In this document: one piece after another, positions 7,352-32,948 of the stretch
How positions within the stretch are numbered: the stretch's first letter is position 1
Layout: every line of letters begins with the position of its first letter
Assembly: GCA_036000965.1 (NCBI GenBank)
Contig: DASYUT010000265.1
Coordinates: 24,555 to 88,554, forward strand
Source: Actinomycetes bacterium
Lineage (GTDB): Bacteria; Actinomycetota; CALGFH01
Direction: 5' to 3'
DNA: 64,000 nucleotides
The notes under the pieces: model-generated
Database searches by the model: none
Told to the model about the DNA's origin: nothing
The model's input: the letters and a program-made list of their open reading frames with translations, nothing else
Position numbers and translations under genes: made by a program

Positions 7352-7409
7352 CCGCGGTGACAGCCTATCCTGGTGCTCCTCCGTCCAGCGACAGCCGTGG
7401 AGGGCGGGC

Positions 7410-10196
7410 GTGACCTGCGCGAACTGTGGAGAGGTCAACCCCGGTCAGGCGCGGTTCTGCCTCAACTGCGGTGCGCCGCTGGGTGCCGGCGGGCGGTGGC
7501 GCGGCGCCCGCAAGGTGGTGACCGTCGTCTTCAGCGACGTCACCGGCTCGACCGCGCTCGGCGAGCGGCTCGACACCGAGTCGCTCAGCCGGATCATGGC
7601 CCGCTACTTCGACGCGATGCGGACGCTGGTCGAGTGGCACCACGGCGTGGTGCAGAAGTTCGTCGGGGACGCGGTCGTCGCGGTGTTCGGCGTCCCGATC
7701 GTGCGCGAGGACGACGCACTACGGGCCGTCCGGGCCGCCGCAGCCATGCAGGACCACCTTGCGGAGCTGAATGCCGCCCTCGCCCGGGACTGGGGTGTCG
7801 GTCTGAGGATCCGCATCGGGGTCAGCACCGGGGAGGTGATGGTCGGCGACGCGCGCCTCGGCGGCGCGCTGGTGATCGGCGACACGGTCAACCTGGCCAC
7901 CCGGCTCGAGGCGGCGGCCAGGCCTGGGGAGATCCTGCTGGACCGGAGGACCTGGCACCTGGCCCGCGACGCAGTGGTGGTGGTCGAGGTGACGCCCGAG
8001 CAGCTCGCCGGCAGTGGCATCCCCGGCGCTGCCTACCGGCTCATCGACGTCTCGCCCGACGTCCCTGGCCACCTCCGCCGCCAGGACAGCCCGCTGGTCG
8101 GCCGTGACGACGAGCTCCGGCTCTTCGACTGGATCCGCCGACGGAGCACCAGGGAGTCCACCTGCCACCTGCTCACCGTGCTGGGCGCCGCCGGGGTGGG
8201 CAAGTCGCGCCTGGTCGCCGAGGCCGTCGGCGCTGCCGGCAGGCAGGCCACCGCCCTGGTCGGGCACTGCCCCCCCGACGCCGAGGGCAACACCTTCTGG
8301 CCGATCGCCGAGGTCGTCCGTGGGGCGGCCGAGGTCAAGAGCGCCGACTCGCCCGACGAGGCCCAGGGCAAGCTGACCGAGCTGCTCTCCGACGCCCCCG
8401 ACGGGCCACGGGTCGCGGGCCGCATCGGCCGGCTCATCGGCCTGGAGGCGACGCCGCTGCCGGCGGAGGAGACGGGCTGGGCCGTCCGGCGGTTCCTCGA
8501 GGTGCTGGCCAGCCGCAAGACCCTGGTGGCCCGCCTCGACCACCTCGACGGCTGGGAGCGGGCGGTGCTGGAGCGGGGCGCGGTCGTCGGCGAGGTGTTC
8601 GAGCGGGCGGCAGTGGTCGAGCTGTCACCGTCGGACGTCCGACCGGCCGTCCCGGACCACCTGCTCTCGCTCATCAGGAAGGAGCTGCTGCGCTCGGCCC
8701 GGTCCGGGCTGTCCGGCGGGGAGGCGTTCCGGTTCCGCCACCTGCTCGTCCGCGACGCCGCCTACGGCGCCATGCCCAAGCAGGCCAGGGCCGACCTGCA
8801 CGAGCGCTTCGCGGCCTGGCTGGAGCGAACCGTGGGCGAGCGGGTGCGCGAGTACGAGGAGATCATCGGCCACCACCTCGAGCAGGCCTACCGCTACCGC
8901 TCCGAGCTGGGACCGACCGACGCCGGGGCGCGAGCCGTCGCCGCCCGGGCCGCCGGGCAGCTGGCCGCAGCCGGGAACCACGCCTTCGCACGGGCGGACA
9001 TGCCGGCAGCGGCCAACCTTCTCGGCCGCGCCGCCGCGCTGCTCCCGGACACCGACGCGGGGCGCCTGGAGCTGCTTCCGAACCTCGCCCGGGCGCTCAC
9101 CGACAGCGGCAGGTTGTCCCTGGCGGAGGCGACGCTCACGCAGGCGACCGAGCTCGCCCGCGCCACCGGTGACCGCCGCGCCGAGGCCCACGCCGAGCTG
9201 GGGCGGTACTGGCTGCGGTACTACGCCGGGCGCGGAGGCTGGCTCGAGGACACCATGCGTGGCGCGGAGCAGCTCATCCCGGTCTTCGAGCGGCTCGGCG
9301 ACGACGCCGGCCTCGCCAAGACGTGGCGGCTGCTCTCCGAGGTGCACCTGACCCGCCTCCACATCGCCGCCAGCGAGGCGGCGGCGGCGCGCGCCGTCGA
9401 GCACGCCCGGCGGGCCGGAGACGAAAATGCGGAGGCGTCCGGCCTCGGCCACCTCGCCGTCGCCGGGGCATGGGGACGCAGGCCCGTGCCTGACGGCATC
9501 CGTCGCACCGAGGCCATCCTGGCAGAGGCCCGGGGCCGCCGGGACGTCGAGGCCGCCGCGTTGAAGGGGCTTGCCGGCCTGCGGGCGATGAGCGGCGACT
9601 TCGACGCGGCCAGGGAGCTCATGGCCCGCCACCGGGCGATCATCCAGGAGATCGGGCGCAAGCTGGTGCTCGGCGGGAGCGCGCAGATGGCCGCCTACGT
9701 GGAGATGCTGGCCGGCGACGCCCGCGGTGCCGAGCGGGAGCTGCGCCGTGGCTACGAGATCCTGGACTCGGCCAGCGACCGCGCCTACCTGCCGGCCGTG
9801 GCCGCCATGCTCGCCCACGCGCTCGAAGCCCAGGGCCGCTACCAGGAGGCCGAGCGGTATCTCGAGCGAGCCTGGGCCATGGCGGTCAGCAGGCGAACTG
9901 CCAGGCTGCCCACCGGTCGGCGAGCCGTGCGTAGACGGCCTCGTGCTGGCAGGCCGAGTCCTCCCAACGGAACCGGGTCGCCACCCGCCGCCCCGCCGCA
10001 CCGAGTCGCGCCCGCAGCTCGCTGTCGGTCGCCGTCGTGCGCATCGCGTCCGCCAGTGCGGCGACGTCGCCCGGGGCCACCAGGAGCGCGTCCCTCCCGC
10101 CGACCAGGTATTCGCGGAACACGGGAATGTCGGTGGCGATCACGGGGAGACGCGCGGCCATCGCTTCGAGCACCACCAGGCCCCAACCCTCCTTGA
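7410..10196 (+). CDS. Adenylate/guanylate cyclase (class III) with N-terminal zinc ribbon, central AAA/NB-ARC-like ATPase and C-terminal TPR region
   Basis: Zinc ribbon CANCGEVNPGQARFCLNCGAPL. Cyclase motifs VVTVVFSDVTGSTAL, FVGDAVVAVFG and IGDTVNLATRLE, then a P-loop GAAGVGKS and TPR-like repeats. GGAGGG lies 5 nt before the GTG at 7410. The last ~100 aa are low-complexity and overlap the convergent GT gene, so the true C-terminus is uncertain. Confidence 0.75.
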   Translation: MTCANCGEVNPGQARFCLNCGAPLGAGGRWRGARKVVTVVFSDVTGSTALGERLDTESLSRIMARYFDAMRTLVEWHHGVVQKFVGDAVVAVFGVPIVREDDALRAVRAAAAMQDHLAELNAALARDWGVGLRIRIGVSTGEVMVGDARLGGALVIGDTVNLATRLEAAARPGEILLDRRTWHLARDAVVVVEVTPEQLAGSGIPGAAYRLIDVSPDVPGHLRRQDSPLVGRDDELRLFDWIRRRSTRESTCHLLTVLGAAGVGKSRLVAEAVGAAGRQATALVGHCPPDAEGNTFWPIAEVVRGAAEVKSADSPDEAQGKLTELLSDAPDGPRVAGRIGRLIGLEATPLPAEETGWAVRRFLEVLASRKTLVARLDHLDGWERAVLERGAVVGEVFERAAVVELSPSDVRPAVPDHLLSLIRKELLRSARSGLSGGEAFRFRHLLVRDAAYGAMPKQARADLHERFAAWLERTVGERVREYEEIIGHHLEQAYRYRSELGPTDAGARAVAARAAGQLAAAGNHAFARADMPAAANLLGRAAALLPDTDAGRLELLPNLARALTDSGRLSLAEATLTQATELARATGDRRAEAHAELGRYWLRYYAGRGGWLEDTMRGAEQLIPVFERLGDDAGLAKTWRLLSEVHLTRLHIAASEAAAARAVEHARRAGDENAEASGLGHLAVAGAWGRRPVPDGIRRTEAILAEARGRRDVEAAALKGLAGLRAMSGDFDAARELMARHRAIIQEIGRKLVLGGSAQMAAYVEMLAGDARGAERELRRGYEILDSASDRAYLPAVAAMLAHALEAQGRYQEAERYLERAWAMAVSRRTARLPTGRRAVRRRPRAGRPSPPNGTGSPPAAPPHRVAPAARCRSPSCASRPPVRRRRPGPPGARPSRRPGIRGTRECRWRSRGDARPSLRAPPGPNPP

Positions 10197-11121
10197 GGGA
10201 GGGGAACACGAACGCGTCGGCTGCCTGGTACCAGCAGGGAAGCTCCTGGTCCGGGACCGTGCCGAGCAGGACGACGTCCCGGCCCAGCTCGAGTCCTGAC
10301 GCCCGAGCCCGGGTCAGGACGCGGTCGCGGTAGGCGGCGTAGTCCTGGAACGAGTGGCCGCCGACGACCGCGAGCACGGGCGAGGGCTGCAGGGTGCGCC
10401 GCAGCGCGGCCATTGCCTCGATGAGCTCGGCGGCGCCTTTGCGTGGCTCGATGCCGCCGACGGTGAGGAAGAGGAAGCGGCCCTCCGCGCCCACCCTGGC
10501 GCGGAACGGACCTGGGTCGAAGGCCGGCACCCGGGCGAAGCGCTCGGCGTCGACCCCGTTGCGCACGACCTCGGCCGCCACGCCGTACTCCTCCTCGAGC
10601 ACCCGCCGCCACCAGTGGCTCACCACGAGGACGTGGTCGGGCTCGAGGATGGCCCGGCGCTGGCACTCGACCAGCGCCTGCGTGGTGAAGTCGTCGACGT
10701 GGTGGACGGTCCGCACCACCAGCACCGGCGCGCCGAGGTCGCGGACGCGCGCGGCGGCCCGGGCCGAGATGCAGTCCTGGGCGTGGAGGATGCGGGAGGC
10801 GGGCTGCAGGGCGGCCAGCCCTTCGGCGAGGACGTCGACCGACCGGAACACCCGCTCCTCGAGGTCGGGTGCTGGCGGCGGCGTGGGGATGATGGTGTGC
10901 TGGACCGTCGTGGGCCGGAAGAAGCCGGCCTCCGGGTCGCCGAGCGCCACGACGCGCACGGGCATGCCGAGCCGGTGGAGCGCCTCGGCCAGCTGCAGCG
11001 TGTGCACCACACCGCCCCGGGGCCTGGTCGAGTACGTCACCAGGACGACGTCGGCGCTGACCGGGCGCTCCTCCTGCTCCCGACCGGGCCCCGGCCCGCC
11101 CGCCGACGTAACGGGGGCCAC
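9886..11121 (-). CDS. GT4 family glycosyltransferase (MshA/MSMEG_0565-like)
   Basis: The N-terminal domain (VVLVTYSTRPRGGVVHTLQLAEALHRLGMPVRVVAL) and the C-terminal EGWGLVVLEAMAARLPVIATD motif fit GT4. The stop TGA is at 9886. The start is ambiguous: GTG at 11121 or GTG at 11181 inside the tandem repeat. Confidence 0.7.
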   Translation of the reverse strand: MAPVTSAGGPGPGREQEERPVSADVVLVTYSTRPRGGVVHTLQLAEALHRLGMPVRVVALGDPEAGFFRPTTVQHTIIPTPPPAPDLEERVFRSVDVLAEGLAALQPASRILHAQDCISARAAARVRDLGAPVLVVRTVHHVDDFTTQALVECQRRAILEPDHVLVVSHWWRRVLEEEYGVAAEVVRNGVDAERFARVPAFDPGPFRARVGAEGRFLFLTVGGIEPRKGAAELIEAMAALRRTLQPSPVLAVVGGHSFQDYAAYRDRVLTRARASGLELGRDVVLLGTVPDQELPCWYQAADAFVFPSLKEGWGLVVLEAMAARLPVIATDIPVFREYLVGGRDALLVAPGDVAALADAMRTTATDSELRARLGAAGRRVATRFRWEDSACQHEAVYARLADRWAAWQFAC

Positions 11122-11127
11122 CCCCGC

Positions 11128-11274
11128 TGGCCTCACGGGAACCCGCCCGCCGGCGTCACGGGGCCCGCCCGCCGGCGTCACGGGACCCCGCCCGCCGGCG
11201 TCACGGGACCCCGCCCGCCGGCGTCACGGGGCCCCGCCCGCCGGCGTCACGGGGCCCCGCCCGCGGTCTCGGGG
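11128..11274. repeat. 22/23-bp tandem repeat x~6 (ccccgcccgccggcgtcacgggg)
   Basis: Units at 11142, 11164, 11186, 11209 and 11232, plus a partial copy at 11255. The unit is not a multiple of 3. The array spans the fdrA stop codon and the GT 5' region. Confidence 0.8.
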
Positions 11275-12809
11275 CGACGGGCGGCGACGGCGGCGGCCAC
11301 GACCGCGCCGCGGGCCGCCGTCGGCACCACGATGCAGCCGGCGTCCAGCAGCTTCCGGCACTGCTCCCAGCGGCCCTGCGGGTCGCGGTCGGTGCCGAGG
11401 ACGTAGGCGACCACCTGCGGCCCGCCGCGCTGGGCCATCACCTCGGCGCAGGCCGGGGCCAGCACGCCGGCCGGATCGGGATGGACGCCGTGACCGAGGA
11501 CCACGTCGACGAGCACCACTGCCGTGGACGGGTCGCGCCCCTCTCGGAGGATGGGCTCGGTGCGCGCGCCGGGGTCGAGCATCGGGTGTGGGCGGCCCCT
11601 GGTGAACTCCTCCTCGCCGACGTCGAGGCAGATGTGGCCGGCCGGCGGGGCCGGGAGGCCCCAGGCCGGCCGCAGCGGCGTGTTGGAGTGGACGGGCCCG
11701 AGCCGGGCCGACAGCACCACCATCGCCTCGTAGCAGAGGGTGCCGCCGGAGAACACGCCCCGCACCGCACGCCGGCCCGGCGCGAGCCGCGCGCAGGCAC
11801 GCCCGGCCGCCTCCGCGAGCCCGGCCCCGGGGTCGGGGCACGACCTGCCGAGCTTGGCGAGGACGTCGAGCACGCCCCGCTCGGCGGTGGCGGCCGCCGT
11901 CACCCCCCGCCGCTCCGGGATCGGCGCGTCGAGCCCGATCAGGACGGCCACCAGCGGCTTGGTGCCGGCCGTGTCGAGCACGGCCGCGGCCACGTCCTCG
12001 TCGGGCGGCTTGGACACCAGCAGGATCGCCTCGGTGGCCTCGTCGCGCTCGAGGGCCTCGATGGCGAGGCGGGCCATGCGCCCACCGACCTGGCGGGAGA
12101 GGTCGCGGCCGCCGACGCCGATCACGTGGGAGACGCCTGCGCCCCACCGGTCGAGCAGGCTCATGACCTCCTGGGCTCCCGTGCCCGCGGCAGCCACGAT
12201 CCCCACCGGGCCCCGGGCGACCGCGTTGGCAAACCCCAGCCCGATCCCGCCCAGCATGGCCGTGCCAGCGCCCGGGCCCATCACCAGGCGCCCGGCCGCC
12301 TGGGCCCGGGCCTTGAGCGCCGCCTCCTGCTCCACCGGCACGTTGTCGCTGAACAGCAGGACGTGCAGCCCGGCCGACAGCGCCTTGTGAGCCTCGAGCA
12401 CCGCGTAGGGGCCGGGCACGGAGACGACCGCCGTGTTGGCCCCCGGGAGCAGGGCGAGCCCCTCGTCGAGCGTCCTCGGCCGCGGCTCGCGTCCCGCCTG
12501 GCACCCGCGTCCCGCCTGGGGCTCGCGCCCGGGCTCGCCGAGGAGCGCCCGCTCGGCGGTTGCCAGCGCCGCCCCGGCGGCCTCGGCGGAGGCCGCCCGC
12601 ACAGCTAGCACGAGGTCGTTGGCACCGACCGTGGGCAGCTCCCCGGACCCGAAGCCCTCCGACTCGAGCATCTGGAGATTCGCCGGGGTGCCCATCAGCG
12701 CCCCCGCCCACGCCACCCCCGGCGTCTCGAGCATCGCCCGGGAGCCGGCCATCAGCCGGACCGAGTCGAGGTAGGTGGCCGGGTGGACACGGGTGCGCGC
12801 GACCGTCAC
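11247..12809 (-). CDS. fdrA: FdrA family protein (acyl-CoA-synthetase NDP-forming-like; oxamate carbamoyltransferase subunit AllF-like)
   Basis: Collinear similarity to E. coli FdrA throughout: an N-terminus ending YLDSVRLMAGS, then LVMGPGAGTAM, GVSHVIGVGGRDLS, LVSKPP and GRPHPMLDP. The GTG start at 12809 overlaps the upstream ORF's TGA (GTGA). Confidence 0.8.
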   Translation of the reverse strand: MTVARTRVHPATYLDSVRLMAGSRAMLETPGVAWAGALMGTPANLQMLESEGFGSGELPTVGANDLVLAVRAASAEAAGAALATAERALLGEPGREPQAGRGCQAGREPRPRTLDEGLALLPGANTAVVSVPGPYAVLEAHKALSAGLHVLLFSDNVPVEQEAALKARAQAAGRLVMGPGAGTAMLGGIGLGFANAVARGPVGIVAAAGTGAQEVMSLLDRWGAGVSHVIGVGGRDLSRQVGGRMARLAIEALERDEATEAILLVSKPPDEDVAAAVLDTAGTKPLVAVLIGLDAPIPERRGVTAAATAERGVLDVLAKLGRSCPDPGAGLAEAAGRACARLAPGRRAVRGVFSGGTLCYEAMVVLSARLGPVHSNTPLRPAWGLPAPPAGHICLDVGEEEFTRGRPHPMLDPGARTEPILREGRDPSTAVVLVDVVLGHGVHPDPAGVLAPACAEVMAQRGGPQVVAYVLGTDRDPQGRWEQCRKLLDAGCIVVPTAARGAVVAAAVAARRPETAGGAP

Positions 12810-12946
12810 GCGAACTGCCCGTCCCGCAGGTGGCCCTCGGCCTCGTCCGCGGTCATCGCGTTGGCCTGCTGCTCCTCGAACGTGCCAGCTTGATCGGCGC
12901 GGGTCAGGGCGTTGCCGCCCAAGGCCAGGACGACGGTCTGCTTCAT
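12806..12946 (-). CDS. 46-aa ORF resembling the N-terminus of carbamate kinase / amino-acid-kinase family; translationally coupled to fdrA (possible gene remnant)
   Basis: MKQTVVLALGGNALTRADQAGTFEEQQANAMTADEAEGHLRDGQFA* shows the AAK-family N-terminal motif (VV-ALGGNAL). GAGGA lies 10 nt upstream of the ATG at 12946. The stop overlaps the fdrA GTG. Confidence 0.35.
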   Translation of the reverse strand: MKQTVVLALGGNALTRADQAGTFEEQQANAMTADEAEGHLRDGQFA

Positions 12947-13094
12947 GCTGGGCACGTCCTCGTTCCCGCATGGAGGCGCGCACGGTCCGTGGCGACCAGG
13001 CCCGGCCTCTTGATCGACGATAGCGAACGCAGCGTTTAGGATAGTTCACGCAAGGAAGCTGGCACAACGGTTCCACGCCGCTGCTGGAGGCGCG

Positions 13095-13763
13095 ATGATC
13101 CCTGCCATGCCTCCCGACCCTGCGAGCCCCCAGGGCGAGGTCCCGGACGAGGTCGTGCGCCGCTGGCGTGCTGCCGAGGAGCAGCTCTACCCGGTCGTCA
13201 TGACCCGGCCCGACCTCTACGAGCGCAGCATCCAGCTCGTGCGGGCCGTGGCCGACGAGCTGCGGCCGCTCACCACCCCGGCGGCGCTGCTGGCGGCGTA
13301 CGCGGGCGCCGCCGAGCTCGTGGCCGTCGTGATCCAGCGACAGGACCTGGCCGTCGAGGGCCTGGACTTCGGGCTCGCGACCGACGCCGCGTTCAGCCTG
13401 CGCTACCGCGAGGTCCTTGGCGAGGTCGCCCGGGAGCAGGCCATGGAGCGGGTCCGGGCGGCCAGGGAGCGGGGCGACGAGTGGGTGCTCCTGCACGAGA
13501 GCGGCACGCTCGCCCACGCACCGGCGGTGCCCTACCGCCGACTCGAGATGCGCCTCCGGGACGGCGCCGGCCTGCACATGTTCGTCCAGCAGGACCCGGC
13601 CACGGCCGGGCCGCTGTACGGGGTCGAGGCGGTGCAGCTCGACCCCCACACCGGCGACTGGCTGACCGACGCGGCCCCCTGGGCGCGGTCCGAGACGTTC
13701 GGCCAGCCGGAGCCCTGGCGGCGGCTGGCCGAGGAGCTGCGCGGGCGCCGGCAGAACCCTTGA
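13095..13763 (+). CDS. Hypothetical protein
   Basis: Clean 222-aa ORF with GGAGG 5 nt before the ATG. The composition is not an antisense artefact. It is the first gene of the plus-strand cassette ahead of the amidohydrolase, rSAM-like and GNAT genes. Confidence 0.5.
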   Translation: MIPAMPPDPASPQGEVPDEVVRRWRAAEEQLYPVVMTRPDLYERSIQLVRAVADELRPLTTPAALLAAYAGAAELVAVVIQRQDLAVEGLDFGLATDAAFSLRYREVLGEVAREQAMERVRAARERGDEWVLLHESGTLAHAPAVPYRRLEMRLRDGAGLHMFVQQDPATAGPLYGVEAVQLDPHTGDWLTDAAPWARSETFGQPEPWRRLAEELRGRRQNP

Positions 13764-13860
13764 CACCCTCCGCACCAAGCCCCCGACACCCTCCGCACCA
13801 ACCCTTGACACACCTTCCGCACCGTGGAAGATTTCCTTTAGTAGATGCCACTCTTCCAAA
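13759..13860 (+). promoter_or_regulatory. Three ~22-bp direct repeats each carrying TTGACA/CCGACA, followed by an AT-richer stretch; candidate promoter for the amidohydrolase/rSAM/GNAT genes
   Basis: ccTTGACAccctccgcaccaagccc, ccgacaccctccgcaccaaccc and TTGACAcaccttccgcaccgtgg, then gaagatttcctttagtagatg. Confidence 0.4.
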
Positions 13861-13898
13861 AGTGATCGGCCCGGGCCGGTCAAGTGAGAGGTGGGCAC

Positions 13899-14759
13899 AT
13901 GGCCAGCGAGCGAGTCCCCCGGCGAGTGATCGACGGCCATAGCCACATCGGAGAGATGGCGGCGTGGCGCTTCTACGACCTGAAGGAGCCGGTCAAGCCC
14001 ACGGTCTACGAGTTCGCCACCACCGGGGACTACATGGCCCACCTGGACCGTCTCGGCGTCGAGCGGGCACTGGTGATCTCCAACTACGGGATCCCCCAGC
14101 AGGAGCAGCCGTTCTCCCTGAACCCGCTCGTGCTCGACTCGGTGCAGGCCTCTGACCGGCTCTGCGGTGCGCTCTGGGTCTCGTTCCTGCCGCAGAACAG
14201 GGAGCGGACCCTCGAGGCGCTGAAGCACGCCGGCGAGGCGCGCGTCGTCGCCCTCAAGACGACCTTCCTGCTCGGCGGCAACCCGAACCCGGAGACCTGG
14301 GACGAGGAGACGGCCGCGCTGGCCGAGGCCTGCTTCGCCGCCGCCGAAGAGCACGACCTGGTGTTCCACTTCCACACCAGCCCCGGCGGCGCCTCGGACA
14401 TCAGCAACTTCATCCCGCTGGTCGAGCGGTACGGCAGGCGGGTGAAGCTCTACCTCGTCCACTTCGGCGGCGGCGTCAGCGGGCACATCCGGCTGGTGCC
14501 GCGGTTCCTGGACTGGGTCGAGGAGGGGTACAAGGTCTACACCGACACCACGTGGTGCATCGGCTTCGGCCCCCGCTGGCTGCTCAGCGAGATCGAGCGC
14601 CGCGACGTCGGGCACGACCGGGTGATCTTCGCCTCCGACGAGCCGTGGAGCGACTTCTGGGGCGAGTACTGGAAGATCGCCGGCGCCCGCGCCAGCTCGG
14701 AGCTGAAGGAGCGGGTCTTCCACCAGAACTTCGAGGACCTGTATGGGCACCGGTGGTGA
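13899..14759 (+). CDS. Amidohydrolase family 2 (TIM-barrel metal-dependent hydrolase)
   Basis: VIDGHSHIG at the N-terminus, an HFH motif and a C-terminal acidic residue pattern. GAGAGGTGGG precedes the ATG at 13899. Confidence 0.75.
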   Translation: MASERVPRRVIDGHSHIGEMAAWRFYDLKEPVKPTVYEFATTGDYMAHLDRLGVERALVISNYGIPQQEQPFSLNPLVLDSVQASDRLCGALWVSFLPQNRERTLEALKHAGEARVVALKTTFLLGGNPNPETWDEETAALAEACFAAAEEHDLVFHFHTSPGGASDISNFIPLVERYGRRVKLYLVHFGGGVSGHIRLVPRFLDWVEEGYKVYTDTTWCIGFGPRWLLSEIERRDVGHDRVIFASDEPWSDFWGEYWKIAGARASSELKERVFHQNFEDLYGHRW

Positions 14760-15918
14760 CGCCCGGCCGGACCGCCTGGAGCGCGCGAGGCCCGTGGTGA
14801 CGCCGGAGCTCGGCCGCGTGATCACCGAGCTGCAGAGCGAGGGCTTGCGGATCGAGCAGCCGGTGGAGGCCCGGCGGGGCGGCGCCGGGCCCTCCGACGC
14901 CGGGATGATCTGGGTCGAGGGCATCCCGGTGACCGTCCCCGTGAGTGCCGACTACGTCGCCGGCTCCCCGTTCGTGCTGCGCCGGGAGGACCAGGGCTGG
15001 GGGATCTACCGCCGCGGGCAGCGGGTCGCCTCCGCCGACCCGCTCGAGCGGCCCCGCTTCTACGACCTCAGCACCGCCGACGGCATCCCGTACTGGAAGA
15101 TCGCACTGCTCCACCTCGACTCGCTGGCCAGCACCGTGCTGCAGACCTGCGCCTACTGGGGCACCGACGACCAGTGCCACTTCTGCGGCATCGAGCTGTC
15201 GCTCGAGGCCGGTCGGACGATCGCGGTGAAGCGCCCGGAGCAGCTCGCCGAGGTCGCCGTGGCCGCCAAGGCGCTCGACGGCGTGGTCGACGTGACCCTC
15301 ACGACCGGCAGCACCCACGGCCCCGACCGGGGCGCGCGGTACCTGGGCCGCTGTGCTCACGCGGTCAAGCAGGCGAGCGGGCTGCCCGTCGAGGGGCAGT
15401 TCGAGCCGCCCGCCGACCTCGGCGTCCTGGACGAGGTCCACGAAGCGGGCCTGGACTCGGTCGGCATGCACGTGGAGTCGTTCGACCCGCAGGTGCTGGC
15501 CCGGATCGCGCCGGCCAAGGCCCGCACCGGCATCGACGGGTACTTCCGGGCCTGGGAGCGGGCGGTCGAGGTGTTCGGCGCAGGCCAGGTCTCGACCTAC
15601 GTGATCCTCGGCATGGGCGAGGACCCCGGGGTGACCGTCGAGGGCTGCCGGCGGGCCATCGACATGGGCGTCTACCCGTTCGTCGTGCCGCTCCGGCCCG
15701 TGCCAGGCAGCCTCATGGAGCACTGCCGGCCCCCCACCGCCGACGACATGGACGCCGTGTACCGCCAGGTGGCCCCCTACCTGGTGGCCCGGGGGGTGGC
15801 GTCGTGGGACGTCCGCGCCGGCTGCGCCCGTTGCCAGGCGTGCTCGGCCATCTCCATCCTGGAGCGGGACCTTGCCAGCGACCAGCGCACCCATCTCCCC
15901 ATTCTCGACGTGCGCTGA
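14743..15918 (+). CDS. Putative radical-SAM-like protein with a non-canonical CX9CX2C cysteine motif (resembles the Nit1C/MSMEG_0568-cluster radical SAM)
   Basis: The cluster CAYWGTDDQCHFCG sits in a region consistent with a SAM-radical core. The ATG overlaps the amidohydrolase stop, with GAGGA 6 nt upstream. Confidence 0.5.
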   Translation: MGTGGDARPDRLERARPVVTPELGRVITELQSEGLRIEQPVEARRGGAGPSDAGMIWVEGIPVTVPVSADYVAGSPFVLRREDQGWGIYRRGQRVASADPLERPRFYDLSTADGIPYWKIALLHLDSLASTVLQTCAYWGTDDQCHFCGIELSLEAGRTIAVKRPEQLAEVAVAAKALDGVVDVTLTTGSTHGPDRGARYLGRCAHAVKQASGLPVEGQFEPPADLGVLDEVHEAGLDSVGMHVESFDPQVLARIAPAKARTGIDGYFRAWERAVEVFGAGQVSTYVILGMGEDPGVTVEGCRRAIDMGVYPFVVPLRPVPGSLMEHCRPPTADDMDAVYRQVAPYLVARGVASWDVRAGCARCQACSAISILERDLASDQRTHLPILDVR

Positions 15919-16399
15919 CCTCGAGGCGGCCGTCGGCGCGGACGCGACGGTCGGCTGCCGCCTGGTCGCCACGACCGCCGAGCGCGAGCTGCACCTGCGC
16001 ATCCGGGCGGAGGTCTTCGTCAACGAGCAAGGCCTGTTCGCCGTGACCGACCGGGACGCCCACGACGACGACCCGGGCACGCTGCACGTACTCGGGCTGT
16101 GCGGCCCCGTGGCCGCCGGCGCCGTGCGCCTGTACCCGCTGGACGAGCCGGGGCGCTGGAAGGGCGACCGCCTGGCCGTGCTGCCCGCGCTCCGCAAGCA
16201 CGGCCTCGGGGCGCCGCTGGTGCGGTTCGCGGTGCGCACGGCCGGCGAGCGGGGTGGCCGGGAGATGCTCGCCCACGTGCAGCTCCGCAACGTCGCCTTC
16301 TTCGAGCAGCTCGGCTGGCACCGGCTCGGCGAGCCGGCCGACTACTGCGGCCGGCCGCACCAGCGCATGCGCATCGGCCTGCGACCGCCCCGCACCTGA
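15872..16399 (+). CDS. GNAT family N-acetyltransferase
   Basis: The acetyl-CoA-binding region VRLYPLDEPGRWKGDRLAVLPALRKHGLGAPLV...NVAFFEQLGW fits GNAT. The probable TTG start at 15872 has GGAG upstream. Confidence 0.6.
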   Translation: MPATSAPISPFSTCADLEAAVGADATVGCRLVATTAERELHLRIRAEVFVNEQGLFAVTDRDAHDDDPGTLHVLGLCGPVAAGAVRLYPLDEPGRWKGDRLAVLPALRKHGLGAPLVRFAVRTAGERGGREMLAHVQLRNVAFFEQLGWHRLGEPADYCGRPHQRMRIGLRPPRT

Positions 16400-16442
16400 G
16401 CTGGAGGCGGCCCGGCCCGCACCTGAGCGGGAGGCGGCCCGG

Positions 16443-17417
16443 TCAGCGCGGCACCCGGGCCCGGGTTCCGAGGCCCGTCACCGTCTCGCGGTGCAGGTCC
16501 AGGACGAGTGCCTCCGCCCCGCCGAGGCGAGCCCGCAGCGCCCCCGAGCCGTCCAGGACGGCGACCGGCTCGCAGGCGAGGCCACGGTCGAGGAACGGCG
16601 CCCGGCAGGCGTCCACCTTGCCGGGCGGCGCGCAGAGCAGGAACGCGAAGGCTGGGAAGGCGACGAGCCAGCGGGCCAGGGACACCCCGGCCGGGCGGGG
16701 CAGGGCGTCCAGGTCGACGGTGGCGCCCAGCCTGCCGTACTCGAGCAGCATCGCAAGCGAGCCGAGCAGCCCCGCCATGCTGACGTCCTTGGCCGCCACG
16801 CAGGCACCCGACTCGGCCACGCGGGGCAGCAGGCGGACGTCGTCGGCGACGGCGGCGCCGCGCTGCGGCAGCGACGCGAAGAACGGGAAGTCCTCCCGCA
16901 TCGTCCCGTCCAGGCAGCAGGCGACCAGCAGGGTCTGGCCGGGGGCGGCCGCGCGCACCGACAGCACGCGTGCCGCCCGGCCGAGGCCGAACGCCGAGAT
17001 CCCCGGCGGGCCGTCCCGGATCGTGAGGTGGCCCCCCACCACGGGCACCCGGTACAGCTCGGACGCGTGCCGCATGCCCTCCAGGGCGCGCCGGGCGAGC
17101 GGCTCGGAGGCGACCACGGTGTCCACGATCGCCAGCGGCCAGGCCCCCATGGCGGCCAGGTCGTTCACGTTGGTGAGCACCGCGGCGACGCCGGCGGCGA
17201 ACGGGTCGGCCTCCACGAAGCGGGTCAGGAGCGCCTCGCCTCCGACCACCAGCGAGCAGGCTCCGTCGCTGACGACGGCCCCGTCGTCACCCGGCCCGCT
17301 GCGCCAGTCCGTGGGCCCGAGCACCTCGGTCACCAGCCCCAGCGGGGACTTGCCGCGCAGGCCGGCGTGCGCGCGGACCCCGTTCACGACCTCCTCGAGC
17401 AGCGCCGCCGCTCCCAT
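16443..17417 (-). CDS. AIR synthase-related (PurM-like superfamily) protein
   Basis: PurM-like motifs DDGAVV, NVNDLAAMGAWPL and VVGGHLT. ATG at 17417 with GGGGAGGAG 6 nt upstream. Confidence 0.7.
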   Translation of the reverse strand: MGAAALLEEVVNGVRAHAGLRGKSPLGLVTEVLGPTDWRSGPGDDGAVVSDGACSLVVGGEALLTRFVEADPFAAGVAAVLTNVNDLAAMGAWPLAIVDTVVASEPLARRALEGMRHASELYRVPVVGGHLTIRDGPPGISAFGLGRAARVLSVRAAAPGQTLLVACCLDGTMREDFPFFASLPQRGAAVADDVRLLPRVAESGACVAAKDVSMAGLLGSLAMLLEYGRLGATVDLDALPRPAGVSLARWLVAFPAFAFLLCAPPGKVDACRAPFLDRGLACEPVAVLDGSGALRARLGGAEALVLDLHRETVTGLGTRARVPR

Positions 17418-17418
17418 C

Positions 17419-17506
17419 CCTGCTCCTCCCCGGCGTGCGCGCACGCCTCTTGAGGAAGATCCCATGACCGTCTTGAGGAAGATCACATGCCCGTTTACTA
17501 TACGAA
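17419..17506. promoter_or_regulatory. Divergent promoter region with a 16-bp perfect palindrome and a 23-bp direct repeat
   Basis: GGCGTGCGCGCACGCC at 17428-17443. cttgaggaagatcccatgaccgt and cttgaggaagatcacatgcccgt at 17447-17492. The AT-richer stretch tttactatacgaaatg precedes the ComA start. Confidence 0.5.
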
Positions 17507-18301
17507 ATGATGGCCAGCACCGGCTTCCTCGACCTCCCGCCCCGCAGTTCCAAGCCTCGACAGGCGGGGGTCACCCACGTGCTCGACAAGGGCCTCCCCC
17601 TGGCCGAGATGGAGCCGCTCCTGGCCATCCTCGCCGACCACGTCGACCTGTGGAAGCTGGGCTGGGGGACCGCGTACCTCGACCCGACCGTCGGTGACAA
17701 GGTCGCCCTGCTGGCCCGGCACGACGTGCGCGCCTGCGTCGGCGGGACCCTCCTCGAGGTCGCCTGGGCCCAGGGCAAGGCCGAGGCCTGCCTGGCCTGG
17801 GCCTCCGGGCTCGACTTCCCCTGCGTGGAGGTGTCCAACGGCGCGGTCGGCATGCCGCTGGCCGAGAAGCGACGGCTGATCGCCGAGGCCGCCGAGGGCT
17901 TCACGGTCCTGGCCGAGGTCGGCGCGAAGGACCCGAGCGTCCCGGTCTCGCCCTCCGGCTGGGCCGCGGAGATGCTCGGCGACCTCGAGGCCGGGGCGTC
18001 CTGGGCGGTGGCCGAGGGGCGCGAGAGCGGCACCGTCGGCCTGTACCGGCCGGACGGCTCGGTACGGGAGGACGTGGTCGACGCCGTGGTGGGCGCCGTC
18101 GGCCTGCGCCCGCTGCTCTTCGAGGCCCCGGCAAAGCACCAGCAGGCCTGGCTCATCCGCCGCTTCGGCTCCGACGTGAGCCTCGGCAACGTGCCGGCCC
18201 CGGAGGTGCTCGGCCTGGAGACGCTCCGCCTCGGGCTGCGGGCCGACACGATCGAGCTGGCGCGCTCGCGCGGCACGGCCATGAGCGCGGCGGGGCCGTG
18301 A
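17507..18301 (+). CDS. comA: Phosphosulfolactate synthase (ComA) family protein
   Basis: GVTHVLDKG...HVDLWKLGWGTAYL is the ComA family pattern (GWGTS/A). First gene of a tightly coupled operon. Confidence 0.75.
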   Translation: MMASTGFLDLPPRSSKPRQAGVTHVLDKGLPLAEMEPLLAILADHVDLWKLGWGTAYLDPTVGDKVALLARHDVRACVGGTLLEVAWAQGKAEACLAWASGLDFPCVEVSNGAVGMPLAEKRRLIAEAAEGFTVLAEVGAKDPSVPVSPSGWAAEMLGDLEAGASWAVAEGRESGTVGLYRPDGSVREDVVDAVVGAVGLRPLLFEAPAKHQQAWLIRRFGSDVSLGNVPAPEVLGLETLRLGLRADTIELARSRGTAMSAAGP

Positions 18302-19182
18302 GGAACCTCGTCCCCGGCCGCTACCGCGACGTGTCGGTCGCCAGCGTCGACGGCAGCCTCAGCGCCGAGAGCCTCGGGCGCCACTTCCTCGGCCGCGAGG
18401 CCTACCGCCGCACCCGCTACGTGATCGCCCGCCGGGGCCCCGAGGCGGCCCTGGTCCAGGTGACCAAGGCGTCCGAGGTACCGCTGCTCTCGCCGATCGT
18501 CGGCGTCCGGGTGCTCGCCCCACCCGGCGAGTGCGCCGTGGTCGACGCCCCCGAGGTCGACACCGGCGTCCCCTCCCAGCTCGCGCGGGCCGCCCGCGAG
18601 CTGGCCCCCGGCGCCCGCTGCGTGGTCGTGCAGGGGCGCTACCGCCACGTCAGCTTCATCCTCGACCCCGACCCGATCCGGGTCCGCGTGGTCGAGGTCG
18701 TCCCACCGGAGCCGCCGAAGCTGCTGGACCAGGCGCGCCGGGTGCTGGAGATGGCCGAGGACCTCCCCCCGATCGAGCTGCTCCCGGTCCTCACCGACCT
18801 CACCGAGCTGGCCGGGCGGCGGCCCGCCCGGCGCTACCTGCTCCCGTGCCGGGGCTCGGGCATCCGCATCGACGGCGCCGAGACCAGGTTCCTGGACGAG
18901 CGGCCCGCCAGGGAGGAGTGGGTGCTCCTCGGCTGCACCCGCTCCCGCGAGCTGCACGGATGGTTCTACGGAGAGGAGGCCGAGGTGGTGGACATGTGCC
19001 CCCGCCGGCTGGCCGGACCGGCCGGGACCACCCCCGTGCTCACCAAGTGCTGCCTGCTCGAGGAGCACGTCGAGCGCGACGGCGCCCGCGTGACCGTCCC
19101 CTGGGGCGCCTCGCTCGACCTCGTGCGCGAGGGGCTGGCCCGCATCGCGGCCATGGCGGAGCCGGCATGGTCGCCCGCCTGA
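18298..19182 (+). CDS. Hypothetical protein
   Basis: 294-aa ORF whose GTG start overlaps the comA stop (GTGA). No recognisable family. Confidence 0.45.
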   Translation: MRNLVPGRYRDVSVASVDGSLSAESLGRHFLGREAYRRTRYVIARRGPEAALVQVTKASEVPLLSPIVGVRVLAPPGECAVVDAPEVDTGVPSQLARAARELAPGARCVVVQGRYRHVSFILDPDPIRVRVVEVVPPEPPKLLDQARRVLEMAEDLPPIELLPVLTDLTELAGRRPARRYLLPCRGSGIRIDGAETRFLDERPAREEWVLLGCTRSRELHGWFYGEEAEVVDMCPRRLAGPAGTTPVLTKCCLLEEHVERDGARVTVPWGASLDLVREGLARIAAMAEPAWSPA

Positions 19183-20543
19183 GCGACTCCGAGCTGTACG
19201 CCCACCTGTGGGGGACCGGCGAGCTGCGCGCGGTGTTCGAGGAGCGCGCCCGCCTGCAGTCCTGGCTCGACATCCTGGCCGCCCTGGCCCAGGCCCAGGC
19301 CGAGCTTGGCATCATCCCGGCCGAGGCCGCCGCGGCCGTCGCCAGGTCGGCGTCGGTGGACCGGCTCGACCTGGCGTTCGTGGCCGCCGAGACCCGGCGG
19401 ACCTCGCACTCCACGCTCGGGATCATCCGCGGCCTGGAGCGCGTGCTGCCACCCGAGGCGCACGAGTACGTCTACTACGGCGCGACCGTCCAGGACGTCA
19501 CCGACACCTGGACGGCGCTCGCGGTACGCAGGGTCGGCGCGGTCGCCTGGCGCGACCTGCGCCGGATCCGGGCCCACCTGGTCGACCTGGCGGAGCGGCA
19601 CCGCGACACGGTCATGGCCGGGCGCACGCACGGGCAGCCGGGCGCCGCGGTCACGTTCGGGTTCAAGGCCGCCTCCTGGGCCGACGAGGTCCACCGGCAC
19701 GTCGCCCGCCTGCGCGAGGGCGCGTCCCGCTGGCTGGTCGGCCAGCTCGCCGGCGCGGTGGGGACGGTGGCGTTCTTCGGCGACCAGGGGCTCGCCCTGC
19801 GGGCCCGCTTCTGCGCCCGCCTGGGGCTCGCCGACCCGGGCATCTCCTGGCTCACCTCCCGCGACCGCCTGGCCGAGTTCGGCCACCTCCTGGCCATGGT
19901 CACGGCCACCCTGGCCCGGATCGGGACCGAGGTGTACGAGCTGCAGCGGCCCGAGATCGGCGAGCTGCGCGAGCCGGCCGGGCACGAGGCGGTCGGGAGC
20001 ATCACCATGCCCCACAAGCGCAACCCGGAAGGCGCCGAGCACCTGGCCACCCTCGCCCGCCTGGTCAGGGCCCAGTCCGGCGTCCTGACCGAGAGCATGG
20101 TGGCCGAGCACGAGCGCGACGGGCGGGCCTGGAAGGCGGAGTGGCTGGCGTTCCCCGAGGCCTGCCTGCTCGCGGGCGCCGCCCTCGAGCAGGCCGAGCG
20201 GCTGCTGGCCGGGCTCGAGGTGAACACCAGGGCGATGGCGGCCAACCTGGCCGCCGGGCGTGGCTACCTCGCTTCCGAGCAGGTCCTGGCCATGCTGGCG
20301 CCCACGGTCGGCAAGCACCGGGCCCAGGCCCTGCTCCAGGAGGCGCTGCGGGCGGGGTCGGCCCTGGGCCAGCCGCTCGGGGACGCCCTGCTGGCGAGCG
20401 CGGCGCTGCGGCCGCACCTCGACCCCGACGCCCTGCGGCCGCTCCTGGCCGCCCCCGACGCCGGCTCCGCCGCCGCCATGGCCGACGAGGTCGTCCGGCG
20501 GATCCGCGCCGACGGGCAGCGCGAGGCGGGCGGGTGGCCGTGA
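19167..20543 (+). CDS. Aspartase/fumarase-superfamily lyase, adenylosuccinate-lyase-like
   Basis: Signature GSITMPHKRNPEGAEH (GSSxMPxKxNP). The N-terminal region fits the lyase_1 fold. The ATG at 19167 overlaps the upstream gene by 16 nt. Confidence 0.8.
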   Translation: MVARLSDSELYAHLWGTGELRAVFEERARLQSWLDILAALAQAQAELGIIPAEAAAAVARSASVDRLDLAFVAAETRRTSHSTLGIIRGLERVLPPEAHEYVYYGATVQDVTDTWTALAVRRVGAVAWRDLRRIRAHLVDLAERHRDTVMAGRTHGQPGAAVTFGFKAASWADEVHRHVARLREGASRWLVGQLAGAVGTVAFFGDQGLALRARFCARLGLADPGISWLTSRDRLAEFGHLLAMVTATLARIGTEVYELQRPEIGELREPAGHEAVGSITMPHKRNPEGAEHLATLARLVRAQSGVLTESMVAEHERDGRAWKAEWLAFPEACLLAGAALEQAERLLAGLEVNTRAMAANLAAGRGYLASEQVLAMLAPTVGKHRAQALLQEALRAGSALGQPLGDALLASAALRPHLDPDALRPLLAAPDAGSAAAMADEVVRRIRADGQREAGGWP

Positions 20544-21523
20544 ACCCGTCCGGCCGCTTCCGGCTCGCCACGCTCCCGACGCCGCTGGCCCGCGCGGCAC
20601 GGCTCGAGCGGGCGCTGGGCGCCCCGCCGCTGTATGTCAAGCGCGACGACCTCACCGGGTTCGCGCTCGCCGGCAACAAGGCCCGCCAGCTCGAGCTGCT
20701 CGTCGGTGACGCGGTCGGCCGCGGCTGCGACGCGCTCGTCACCGGGGCCGGCCCCGGCTCGAACTTCTGCCAGGCGGCGGCGCTGGCGGCCCGGGTCGCC
20801 GGCCTCGGCTGCGTCCTGGTCATGTACGGCGCCGAGCCGGCCTCGCCCCATCCCAACCTCGCGCTCGCCCGCGCCTCCGGGGCCGAGATCCGCTTCACCG
20901 GCCGCCCGGAGCGCGAGTCCGTCGACCCGGTCCTGGACGAGGCGGCGGCCGAGCTCGAGGCCGAGGGACGCCGGCCGTACCTGGTCCCCCGCGGCGGGTC
21001 CAGCGGTGTCGGCGCGGCCGGCTACGCCCTGGCCGCCACCGAGCTCGCCGCCCAGCTCGACGCCGAGCGGGTCGCGCCAGAGCTGGTCCTGGTCGCCGCC
21101 GGCTCCGGCAGCACCCAGGCCGGCCTGGTCGCCGGCACGGTGGCCGGGGGCCACCCCTGGCGGGTGGCGGGCGCGTCGGTCAGCCGCCCGGTGGCCGAGT
21201 GCGCCGACCAGGTGCTGCGGCTCGCCCGCGCCGCCGCGGCACTCCTCGGCCAGCCGGCCGCGGAGGCCCGGCACGTCGAGGTGTGGGACGCCCGCGGTCC
21301 CGGCTACGGGATCCCCTCCCCGGAAGGCGAGCGGGCCGCCCGGGTGGCCGCCGACACCGAAGGCCTCCTGCTGGACCCGGTGTTCACGGCCAAGGCGCTC
21401 GCCCTCCTGCCCCGTCTCGTGCACGACGGCGTCCGCGGTCCGGTCGTCTTCTGGCACACCGGCGGGACTCCCGGTGCGCTCGCGCACCTGACACGAGGAG
21501 GTGGGCGGTGCGGCAACCGGTGA
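20540..21523 (+). CDS. PLP-dependent enzyme of the ACC deaminase / D-cysteine desulfhydrase family
   Basis: LYVKRDDLTGFALAGNKARQLELL matches the KRDDL...GGNKxRKLE motif. Glycine-rich PLP loop. The GTG start overlaps the upstream stop (GTGA). Confidence 0.8.
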   Translation: MNPSGRFRLATLPTPLARAARLERALGAPPLYVKRDDLTGFALAGNKARQLELLVGDAVGRGCDALVTGAGPGSNFCQAAALAARVAGLGCVLVMYGAEPASPHPNLALARASGAEIRFTGRPERESVDPVLDEAAAELEAEGRRPYLVPRGGSSGVGAAGYALAATELAAQLDAERVAPELVLVAAGSGSTQAGLVAGTVAGGHPWRVAGASVSRPVAECADQVLRLARAAAALLGQPAAEARHVEVWDARGPGYGIPSPEGERAARVAADTEGLLLDPVFTAKALALLPRLVHDGVRGPVVFWHTGGTPGALAHLTRGGGRCGNR

Positions 21524-23007: not shown

Positions 23008-23090
23008 GCGGGTCCGCCACGACGAACTCGAGCTCCGGCTGCCCGCGCAGCCGGTACGCCCCTTCCCAGCGGGCCGTCACCTCCATCACC

Positions 23091-24527: not shown

Positions 24528-24535
24528 CCAGGGCG

Positions 24536-24675
24536 GGCGCACCGGGAGCCCTGGCCCGGCTGGTGGGCGCGCCAGGCCGCACCGCAGGCGCACCGGGAGC
24601 CGCACCTGGGAGGGAGGTGCGCCGCTGCGCAGGCTGGGCGTACCAGGAGCCGCACGTGGGGAGGCGGGTGCGCCG
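24536..24675. repeat. Direct repeats (gcgcaccgggagcc...gggaggNggtgcgccg) x3 between ylbE and ylbF
   Basis: Copies at 24536, 24589 and 24638, each containing a GGGAGG-like element. Confidence 0.5.
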
Positions 24676-25446: not shown

Positions 25447-25448
25447 GC

Positions 25449-25937: not shown

Positions 25938-25975
25938 GGTGTCCGCTCCTCCTGCTCGGGGTCGGGATGCTCTGG

Positions 25976-26263: not shown

Positions 26264-26266
26264 CCA

Positions 26267-27601: not shown

Positions 27602-27625
27602 CCTCGCCCCCAGGGGTCACCATTT

Positions 27626-27690: not shown

Positions 27691-27693
27691 ACC

Positions 27694-32926: not shown

Positions 32927-32948
32927 CCCCTACGGGAGGAACGACCAG

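Follow-up and report, generated by a model that had tools for sequence, protein, structure and literature searches.

The stretch of DNA analyzed here, 64 kb of an Actinomycetes contig (DASYUT010000265.1; hereafter the window), carries at positions 9886-28449 a supercluster of ~18.6 kb and ~19 genes, which very probably forms a single functional unit and a variant of the Nit1C gene cluster. It combines the Nit1C core with all five enzymes of bacterial coenzyme M (CoM) biosynthesis, an AllF/G/H-like trio, a CoADR-like flavoprotein and a regulator with helix-turn-helix (HTH) and cupin domains. The best supported conclusion is a modular variant of Nit1C, in which the five genes common to it and the canonical cluster form the indispensable core and the canonical accessory genes were displaced by unrelated modules. 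As an overall explanation we propose a co-inherited, nitrilase-less Nit1C variant equipped with CoM thiol/reductase and carbon-nitrogen (C-N) cleavage modules, a reading to which we give even chances.

The canonical cluster has been known since 2005 and goes by the names nitBCDEFGH in Pseudomonas, sll0783-0787 in Synechocystis and gpr or MSMEG_0565-0572 in M. smegmatis. It has been linked to polyhydroxybutyrate (PHB) accumulation, is induced by nitrogen starvation and is tied to cyanide assimilation through its nitrilase (PMC11049912, PMC7815647); in M. smegmatis it confers GlnR-dependent peroxide resistance and a higher NADPH/NADP ratio (PMC6039565). The nitrilase alone among the Nit1C proteins has an assigned function, and NitB and NitG were still without one in a 2024 review (PMC11049912). 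We compared the window with three canonical clusters (L085, L086 and L089), from alphaproteobacterial plasmids of Acetobacter, Agrobacterium and Methylorubrum, in which the gene order is Sll0783-nitrilase-rSAM-GNAT-AIRS-GT4-MSMEG_0570-MSMEG_0569, where rSAM denotes the radical-SAM protein and AIRS the AIR-synthase-like protein.

Because the window is ~74% G+C, genes were called by third-position GC, which supported all five genes of 13095-17417 and every other gene named in an earlier note on this sequence. Family membership was judged by the curated cut-offs of NCBIfam and the gathering thresholds of Pfam. The five genes in common with canonical Nit1C are as follows.

9886-11181, minus strand: GT4 glycosyltransferase of the MSMEG_0565 family (TIGR04047, 379.6 bits against a cut-off of 259.85)
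14743-15918, plus strand: rSAM protein of the MSMEG_0568 family (TIGR04043, 412.8 bits against a cut-off of 303.7)
15872-16399, plus strand: GNAT protein of the MSMEG_0567/Sll0786 family (TIGR04045, 106.2 bits against a cut-off of 68.45)
16443-17417, minus strand: AIRS-like protein of the PurM superfamily (top match TIGR04049, 245.2 bits, cut-off 321.3)
25449-25937, minus strand: DsrE-like protein of the MSMEG_0572/Sll0783 family (TIGR04044, 207.7 bits against a cut-off of 109.85)

The earlier note had read this set as a mirror of Nit1C, and the curated cut-offs bear this out for the rSAM, GNAT, GT4 and DsrE-like proteins, including the assignment of the last two to Nit1C families. Within the TIGR04042-TIGR04049 range that it had named for the check, TIGR04043, TIGR04044, TIGR04045 and TIGR04047 were passed, and TIGR04042, TIGR04046 and TIGR04048 went unmatched. 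Identity to the Acetobacter cluster was 55% for Sll0783, 47% for rSAM, 39% for GNAT, 38% for GT4, the start of which is uncertain (~11058 to 11181), and 35% for AIRS. The last value extends over the full length of the AIRS-like protein, in which both Pfam domains, AIRS and AIRS_C, are present; its gene adjoins the GNAT gene as in canonical clusters, and its ATG at 17417 is backed by a GGAGGAG Shine-Dalgarno sequence. Solved PDB relatives of this protein are PurL, SelD, ThiL and HypE. Two of its cysteines, C262 and C271, occur in 96% of the variant clade and are missing from the three canonical proteins.

The rSAM motif, given in the earlier note as CX9CX2C, is in fact CX8CX2C (C136-X8-C145-X2-C148), a spacing shared by the window protein, 119 of 120 database homologues and all 66 related loci; CX9CX2C belongs to the three canonical proteins, and the difference is usable as a sequence marker of the variant. 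When the proteins were aligned, as the same note had advised, the three cysteines proved invariant in 62 variant and 3 canonical sequences, as did a C-terminal CX2CX2C (C361, C364, C367). Another cysteine, C204, is present in 100% of the variant clade and missing from the three canonical proteins. A PDB sequence search with the rSAM protein returned zero matches. Furthermore, Cys115 of Sll0783 was invariant in 60 variant and 3 canonical sequences. The likeness to Nit1C comprises five common families (for the AIRS-like protein, a top match under the cut-off), the local order Sll0783-[hydrolase]-rSAM-GNAT, both rSAM cysteine motifs and Sll0783 Cys115.

The differences are equally clear. The variant lacks the Nit6803-type nitrilase, the MSMEG_0569 flavoprotein and MSMEG_0570; it has instead hyp222 with an Amidohydro_2 protein, a CoADR-like flavoprotein with a small protein (orf95), and the full CoM pathway, together with AllFGH, with or without carbamate kinase, and the HTH-cupin regulator. 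In addition, the window AIRS-like gene lies on the opposite strand and scores under the TIGR04049 cut-off, and the rSAM cysteines are spaced CX8 instead of CX9. The nitrilase model TIGR04048 had zero matches among the cluster open reading frames (ORFs) scanned, tblastn of the canonical nitrilase against the window gave zero, and canonical MSMEG_0569 and MSMEG_0570 had zero matches in the window by tblastn or blastp.

Two genes precede the rSAM gene.

13095-13763, plus strand: hyp222, a cluster-specific 222-aa protein with no Pfam or NCBIfam match
13899-14759, plus strand: Amhy2, a TIM-barrel metal hydrolase of the Amidohydro_2 family (PF04909, 66 bits against 26.4)

The start of Amhy2 was placed at 13899 rather than 13884 because its homologues are 286 aa long, and its end is overlapped by the start of the rSAM gene by 17 nt. 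Amhy2 carries a DGHSHIG motif, and no other protein of the cluster is as conserved (71-84% identity across phyla; >120 database clusters with at least 77% identity). Its family is isolated and tight, with 255 of 1.84 billion representatives matching at E <= 1e-3, and a PDB sequence search with its profile gave zero matches. An AlphaFold2 (AF2) model is a TIM barrel (pLDDT 78), in which the invariant residues H14, H16, K120, H157, H159, H188 and D247 sit at the ends of predicted strands 1, 4, 5, 6 and 8. The TIM barrel, the strand-1 HxH and the strand-8 Asp are common to the amidohydrolase superfamily, from which we compared the PF04909 group (LigI, LigW, ACMSD, IDCase and LigJ) and cyclic amidohydrolases (dihydroorotase and isoaspartyl dipeptidase). 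Foldseek ranked PF04909 enzymes at the top, namely the lactonase LigI, the hydratase LigJ and several decarboxylases (LigW, IDCase, ACMSD and resorcylate decarboxylase), and placed dihydroorotase and isoaspartyl dipeptidase lower; its matches had TM 0.52-0.68 and 12-17% identity. Amhy2 differs from the PF04909 group, however, in an invariant Lys on predicted strand 4. The pattern H/H/Lys/His/His/Asp is that of binuclear carboxy-lysine hydrolases, e.g. dihydroorotase, hydantoinase and allantoinase, whereas PF04909 decarboxylases are mononuclear and lack the strand-4 Lys. From the model we infer that the ligand set of Amhy2 is of the binuclear carboxy-lysine amidohydrolase type. The claim of the earlier note that an amidohydrolase-2 replaces the nitrilase is established for gene position (Sll0783-[hydrolase]-rSAM-GNAT), not for the reaction; PF04909 enzymes and nitrilases are unrelated. 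As for hyp222, which was found in 51 of 84 related loci, its AF2 model is of high confidence (pLDDT 92) and had zero matches among PDB folds.

Divergent from the AIRS-like gene, on the plus strand, lie the genes of the CoM pathway.

17507-18301, plus strand: phosphosulfolactate synthase ComA/XcbB (Pfam ComA, 261 bits)
18298-19182, plus strand: XcbA (DUF7714; NF052538, 348.8 bits against a cut-off of 150)
19167-20543, plus strand: XcbD, 3-sulfopropionyl-cysteine synthase (NF052536, 623.1 bits against a cut-off of 600; 55% identity to Nocardioides JS614)
20534-21523, plus strand: XcbE-like pyridoxal-phosphate (PLP) enzyme (top match NF052537, 309.7 bits, cut-off 450; 50% identity to JS614)
21508-23007, plus strand: XcbC-like phosphosulfolactate phosphate-lyase of the aspartase/fumarase superfamily (top match NF052535, 434.7 bits, cut-off 575)

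All five enzymes are full length, with 48-55% identity to those of the ethene degrader Nocardioides JS614 (pNOCA01) and 40-44% to the characterized enzymes of X. autotrophicus Py2 (PMC9457059). ComA is 51% identical to the JS614 and 40% to the Py2 protein, and XcbC is 49% identical to that of JS614; the XcbE and XcbC cut-offs, 450 and 575, are of the 'exception' type. Py2 XcbA is a [2Fe-2S] thioaldehyde reductase (PMC9457059), and five XcbA cysteines were invariant, Py2 and JS614 included. The order comA-xcbA-xcbD-xcbE-xcbC is that of JS614, where a CoADR-type flavoprotein is also encoded near comA. Judged by sequence, the 'comA operon' of the window is a complete bacterial CoM pathway, and its carriers probably make CoM. 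The sulfonate pathway to which the earlier note had seen the variant joined is therefore this complete CoM set, in a conserved architecture.

In contrast to Py2 and JS614, the variant lacks genes for epoxyalkane:CoM transferase (EaCoMT), alkene monooxygenase and the SDR and CoA-transferase of the alkene pathway; no EaCoMT homologue was found in the 64-kb window or in the 84 related loci. Its carriers are mostly uncultured soil lineages, not alkene degraders, and the genes lie inside a Nit1C-like cluster. According to a 2024 paper, CoM biosynthesis genes are known just from methanogens and alkene-utilizing bacteria (PMC11507031). Among 72,556 plasmids, XcbA (DUF7714) homologues occurred on just 6, four of them from alkene degraders (Xanthobacter Py2, Nocardioides JS614 and M. 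chubuense NBB4) and two from Methylocystis, which contrasts with their frequency in soil loci from metagenome-assembled genomes (MAGs).

The AllF/G/H-like genes are divided between the two sides of the core.

11247-12809, minus strand: FdrA/AllF-like protein with SucD-like CoA-binding and CoA-ligase domains (NF004760 FdrA, 387 bits, cut-off 433)
12806-12946, minus strand: carbamate kinase remnant of 46 codons (matching positions 2-34 of carbamate kinase models, E 4e-5)
23091-24527, plus strand: AllG-like subunit (PF06545, 243 bits, full-length match)
24676-25446, plus strand: AllH-like subunit (PF11392, 76.7 bits)

E. coli AllFGH is an oxamic transcarbamylase, the carbamoyl phosphate of which is turned by the kinase into ATP, CO2 and ammonia (PMC11326118, PMC9843812). 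As in E. coli allFGH-allK, homologues of three subunits are present, the AllF-like protein matching Pfam Ligase_CoA and CoA_binding, and 35 related loci have a carbamate kinase too. Unlike in E. coli, the genes are split over two operons, AllF with GT4 and AllG after XcbC as the xcb operon runs on into the AllG-like and AllH-like genes; there are no other allantoin-pathway genes, and the window kinase is a remnant. The remnant (MKQTVVLALGGNAL...) ends in a TGA that overlaps the GTG at which AllF starts. In L004 a full-length kinase occupies the same position, and the remnant is 36% identical to it. The full-length kinases of the 35 related loci score at the arcC cut-off and above that of a second carbamate-kinase model, and since they occupy the position of the remnant, the window genome has lost the kinase. 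An alternative ORF at 11224-12711 (minus strand) was rejected as a gene, being out of frame with an Arg/Gly/Pro-rich product; third-position GC favored AllF at 11247-12809.

The right end of the cluster is formed, next to the Sll0783 gene, by three further genes.

25976-26263, minus strand: orf95, a small conserved protein of 95 aa with an invariant PGSHR motif
26267-27601, minus strand: single-Cys (Cys44) flavoprotein disulfide reductase of the CoADR/Nox/Npx group
27757-28449, plus strand: XRE-HTH and cupin regulator, PuuR-like (start ~27757-27778; present in 55 of 84 loci)

The flavoprotein had been taken in the earlier note for a Nit1C-associated family. This did not hold, as it showed zero similarity to an MSMEG_0569 protein and its closest solved relatives are CoA-disulfide reductases, NADH oxidases and a CoA-persulfide reductase. 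Cys44 is conserved in 98% of sequences, and the protein is 32% identical to the FAD oxidoreductase beside comA in JS614. The small protein orf95 always lies between the CoADR-like and Sll0783 genes. A relationship of orf95 to MSMEG_0570 was rejected (hhalign probability 0.1%, no NCBIfam match), as were apparent orf95 fusions of 257-545 aa, the products of which contain stop codons. All three canonical clusters have, just upstream of Sll0783, a divergent gene for a ~467-476-aa protein annotated 'PLP-dependent aminotransferase family', which we take to be a MocR-type regulator; the variant has the HTH-cupin regulator in place of this candidate.

Evidence that these modules belong together came from related loci. 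A scan of one genome per species found Amhy2 relatives in 310 genomes, from which the best 80 loci (71-84% identity) were taken; gene content was determined for 84 loci by tblastn with the window proteins, with flanks of up to 10 kb. The best 80 belong to MAGs of Actinomycetota, Acidimicrobiia and Ca. Dormibacterota, to one bin labelled Acidobacteria and to isolates of Asanoa and Pseudonocardia. Across the 84 loci the same gene content recurs in repeatedly shuffled order. Among the 49 non-redundant loci that reach 15 kb or more, 44 have five or more of the ten non-CoM cluster genes that were counted, and 30 have xcb genes inside the 10-kb flanks. Most variant loci have the order CoADR-orf95-Sll0783-hyp-Amhy2-rSAM-GNAT, within which rSAM-GNAT (59/59), CoADR-orf95 (57/58) and orf95-Sll0783 (60/60) are fixed blocks. 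So are AllF-GT4 (44/44, with GT4 directly downstream), xcbA-D-E-C (20/20) and XcbC-AllG (22/23), and Amhy2 is immediately upstream of the rSAM gene in 48 of 63 loci. In the 84 loci, tblastn for nitrilase gave one weak match (31%), in a locus without the cluster (L043), and homologues of MSMEG_0569 and MSMEG_0570 were found in none. The interleaving at the operon level, where the genes of a three-subunit enzyme are split over the GT4 and xcb operons, argues strongly for one unit and against chance neighbors. In 26 loci the cluster includes a gene for an OsmC/Ohr-like peroxiredoxin, as a rule between xcb and allG (e.g. L004 14391-14801 and L001 1076-1495, both on the minus strand); the window has none.

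In the mechanism that we propose, ComA, XcbC, XcbD, XcbE and XcbA would make CoM from phosphoenolpyruvate, sulfite and cysteine. The CoADR-like flavoprotein and orf95 would draw on NAD(P)H to maintain CoM in the reduced state or to split a disulfide or thioether of CoM, and might thereby stand in for the redox function of MSMEG_0569/0570 in canonical clusters, with Cys115 of Sll0783 as a putative sulfur carrier. The rSAM, GNAT, AIRS-like and GT4 proteins may perform the core Nit1C chemistry on a small molecule. Amhy2 and the AllF/G/H-like complex, with carbamate kinase where it is intact, would cleave a C-N bond and release ammonia, as the canonical nitrilase does; we provisionally group hyp222 with them in this module. 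The HTH-cupin protein would be the dedicated regulator of the cluster. Such a scheme agrees with the physiology of canonical clusters, namely induction by nitrogen starvation, the tie to cyanide assimilation through the nitrilase, and peroxide resistance with a high NADPH/NADP ratio in M. smegmatis (PMC6039565, PMC11049912, PMC7815647). That the canonical accessories were replaced function by function, each by one of these modules, seems to us rather doubtful.

Several observations weigh against the proposed explanation. XcbE, XcbC, AllF and the AIRS-like protein score under their curated cut-offs; by the threshold test that the earlier note had set for the AIRS-like protein, TIGR04049 stands as its top match and the score, 245.2 bits, falls under 321.3. 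In the window, carbamate kinase is present as a remnant only and OsmC is missing. Sixteen loci of at least 15 kb have cluster genes and no xcb within the 10-kb flanks, and at least L057 and L032 carry several kb of unrelated DNA at the expected place of xcb; the linkage to CoM is therefore frequent, not proven universal. Three long loci hold Amhy2 alone, in unrelated surroundings. Finally, the top Foldseek matches of Amhy2 (12-17% identity) include no nitrile or amide hydrolase, and because decarboxylases, a lactonase and a hydratase of PF04909 come first among them, Amhy2 could be a decarboxylase instead of a C-N hydrolase. The surroundings of the lone Amhy2 genes in L020 and L071 were discarded as a clue to context, since the neighbors are unrelated (GntR, LuxR, SDR, ribonucleotide reductase (RNR) and the glycine-cleavage T-protein domain GCV_T).

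An alternative is that the product of the cluster is a low-molecular-weight thiol or cofactor derived from CoM and assembled in the way of mycothiol and bacillithiol. GT4 would add a sugar (as MshA/BshA), Amhy2 would deacylate (MshB/BshB), the AIRS-like protein would carry out an ATP-dependent ligation, GNAT would acetylate (MshD), the CoADR-like protein would be the disulfide reductase and OsmC a thiol-using peroxidase. The complete CoM pathway, the CoADR-type reductase in the cluster, the OsmC/Ohr-like protein of 26 loci and the peroxide resistance given by the canonical cluster (PMC6039565) are all consistent with this, and GT4 also matches MshA (93.7 bits) and BshA (71.8 bits). However, these two matches reflect generic GT4 similarity and lie far under the cut-offs. 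Moreover, GT4, GNAT and AIRS-like genes are likewise part of canonical Nit1C, which has no CoM genes, and therefore these proteins cannot need CoM as a substrate. The rSAM enzyme and the AllFGH/carbamate kinase module are also left without a role, and we regard this alternative as unlikely.

We also considered carbamoyl-to-nitrile chemistry, in which carbamoyl phosphate from carbamate kinase and AllFGH would carbamoylate a thiol or amine, the AIRS-like protein would dehydrate the product to a cyano group with ATP in the manner of HypE, and the nitrilase (canonical) or Amhy2 (variant) would handle the nitrile or amide. In favor of this, the solved structures related to the AIRS-like protein include HypE, the cluster has a carbamoyl-phosphate module, and canonical clusters have a true nitrilase linked to cyanide assimilation (PMC7815647, PMC11049912). 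The HypE match is weak, however (E 1e-5), and no better than those to PurL, SelD and ThiL. The carrier residue of HypE is a C-terminal Cys, and zero Cys are conserved between the variant and canonical AIRS-like proteins. Canonical clusters, furthermore, are without AllFGH and carbamate kinase, and such chemistry appears very improbable.

Still less probable is a peptide-derived cofactor of the mycofactocin/PQQ kind, in which the rSAM protein would modify orf95 (or MSMEG_0570) as a precursor, Amhy2 or the nitrilase would excise the modified part, and the flavoprotein, GT4 and GNAT would tailor it. A small protein of ~76-95 aa does always adjoin the flavoprotein. Mycofactocin clusters combine rSAM, hydrolase, flavoprotein and glycosyltransferase genes, a mix that the present cluster resembles. 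The mycofactocin family has been described (PMC3023750). But orf95 and MSMEG_0570 are unrelated (hhalign probability 0.1%), and the conserved residues of orf95 are scattered, with a C-terminal tail of variable length and no conserved C-terminal core. The rSAM tail, moreover, is a CX2CX2C, which differs from the SPASM domain typical of peptide-modifying rSAM enzymes.

Equally improbable is that unrelated neighbors are involved, with xcb making CoM for alkene or epoxide metabolism encoded elsewhere, beside independent Nit1C-like and ureide-catabolic operons: the sole bacterial use of CoM in the literature consulted is in alkene/epoxide pathways (PMC9457059, PMC11507031) and some related loci are without xcb within 10 kb, but the association outlasts repeated shuffling of gene order across three phyla, operons mix the modules (AllF with GT4, AllG with XcbC, Sll0783 with CoADR, Amhy2 with rSAM), EaCoMT is absent from the 84 loci and the 64-kb window, and the genes that flank the cluster in the window are unrelated housekeeping genes.

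A natural variant that has swapped the nitrilase, the flavoprotein and the small protein shows which parts of Nit1C are indispensable, and points to thiol and carbamoyl chemistry. A complete CoM pathway without alkene genes, inside a cluster of many soil lineages, suggests a role of CoM in common soil bacteria beyond methane and alkene metabolism. We advance more tentatively, as possible though somewhat short of probable, that hundreds of soil species of Actinomycetota, Acidimicrobiia and Dormibacterota make CoM to serve as the thiol partner in a Nit1C-type stress pathway that has a CoADR-like reductase of its own; Nit1C would then be, in essence, sulfur/thiol redox chemistry to which C-N cleavage is coupled. 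Because some carriers are culturable (Asanoa and Pseudonocardia), both the function of Nit1C and the wider role of CoM can be tested directly. The individual families are already named in NCBI annotation; the combined cluster is undescribed in the literature that we searched (on Nit1C, the MSMEG/sll loci, xcb, CoM in Actinobacteria, and phosphosulfolactate with radical SAM).

Three spacers of the cluster have features of control regions.

13757-13830, plus strand: hyp222/Amhy2 spacer with three direct repeats of ~23 nt (13757-13823), each with TTGACAC-like boxes, and a terminator-like hairpin
17418-17506, no strand assigned: divergent AIRS/comA control region of 89 bp with a palindrome, a direct repeat and promoter-like boxes
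27602-27756, no strand assigned: CoADR/regulator control region with a sigma-70-like promoter and three 18-nt direct repeats (27626-27677)

The AIRS-like gene is inverted relative to comA and shares with it a spacer containing a palindrome, as the earlier note had observed; this is a perfect 16-bp palindrome, GGCGTGCGCGCACGCC, at 17432-17447, followed by two copies of a 23-nt direct repeat at 17448-17493. In the same spacer, a TTGAGG-17 nt-TACTAT arrangement ends 5 nt upstream of the comA ATG, a placement that would suit a leaderless transcript. The predicted CoADR promoter, TTGACG-16 nt-TAGTAT (27742-27715, minus strand), is the sole consensus match in the region and is conserved in orthologous loci. 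Each of the three spacers has its own tandem repeats (3 x ~23, 2 x 23 and 3 x 18 nt), the units of which are unrelated in sequence. A single operator shared by the window promoters was rejected, as they have TAGTA-type -10-like boxes alone in common; in the search for it, the exact 14-mer TCTTGAGGAAGATC was found just as two copies at 17448-17484. Where Amhy2 is apart from rSAM, a long conserved palindrome, GTCTACTATCCGATGCATATACATCGCATAGTAGAC, lies ~20-60 nt upstream of Amhy2 (L038, L045, L047, L053, L056, L068, L073, L076 and others) and is likely an operator. Rfam searches found zero families across the whole window, and zero in 12700-14000 at a permissive threshold; known riboswitches therefore give no clue to a ligand.

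Outside 9886 and 28449 lie unrelated genes, for kinases, an ABC transporter, a GH65 enzyme and a PMT_2 protein, which do not accompany the cluster in the related loci. At the left edge, an adenylate-cyclase/AAA/TPR ORF (7293-10196, plus strand) converges on the GT4 gene with an overlap of ~310 nt (9886-10196); either the two genes truly share their 3' ends over this length, or the MAG contains a frameshift or an assembly error. Beyond the right edge lie a Ser/Thr kinase with C-terminal Kelch repeats (30231-32705, plus strand) and a 1124-aa fusion of a HAD hydrolase with a GH65 glycoside phosphorylase (32805-36179, plus strand).

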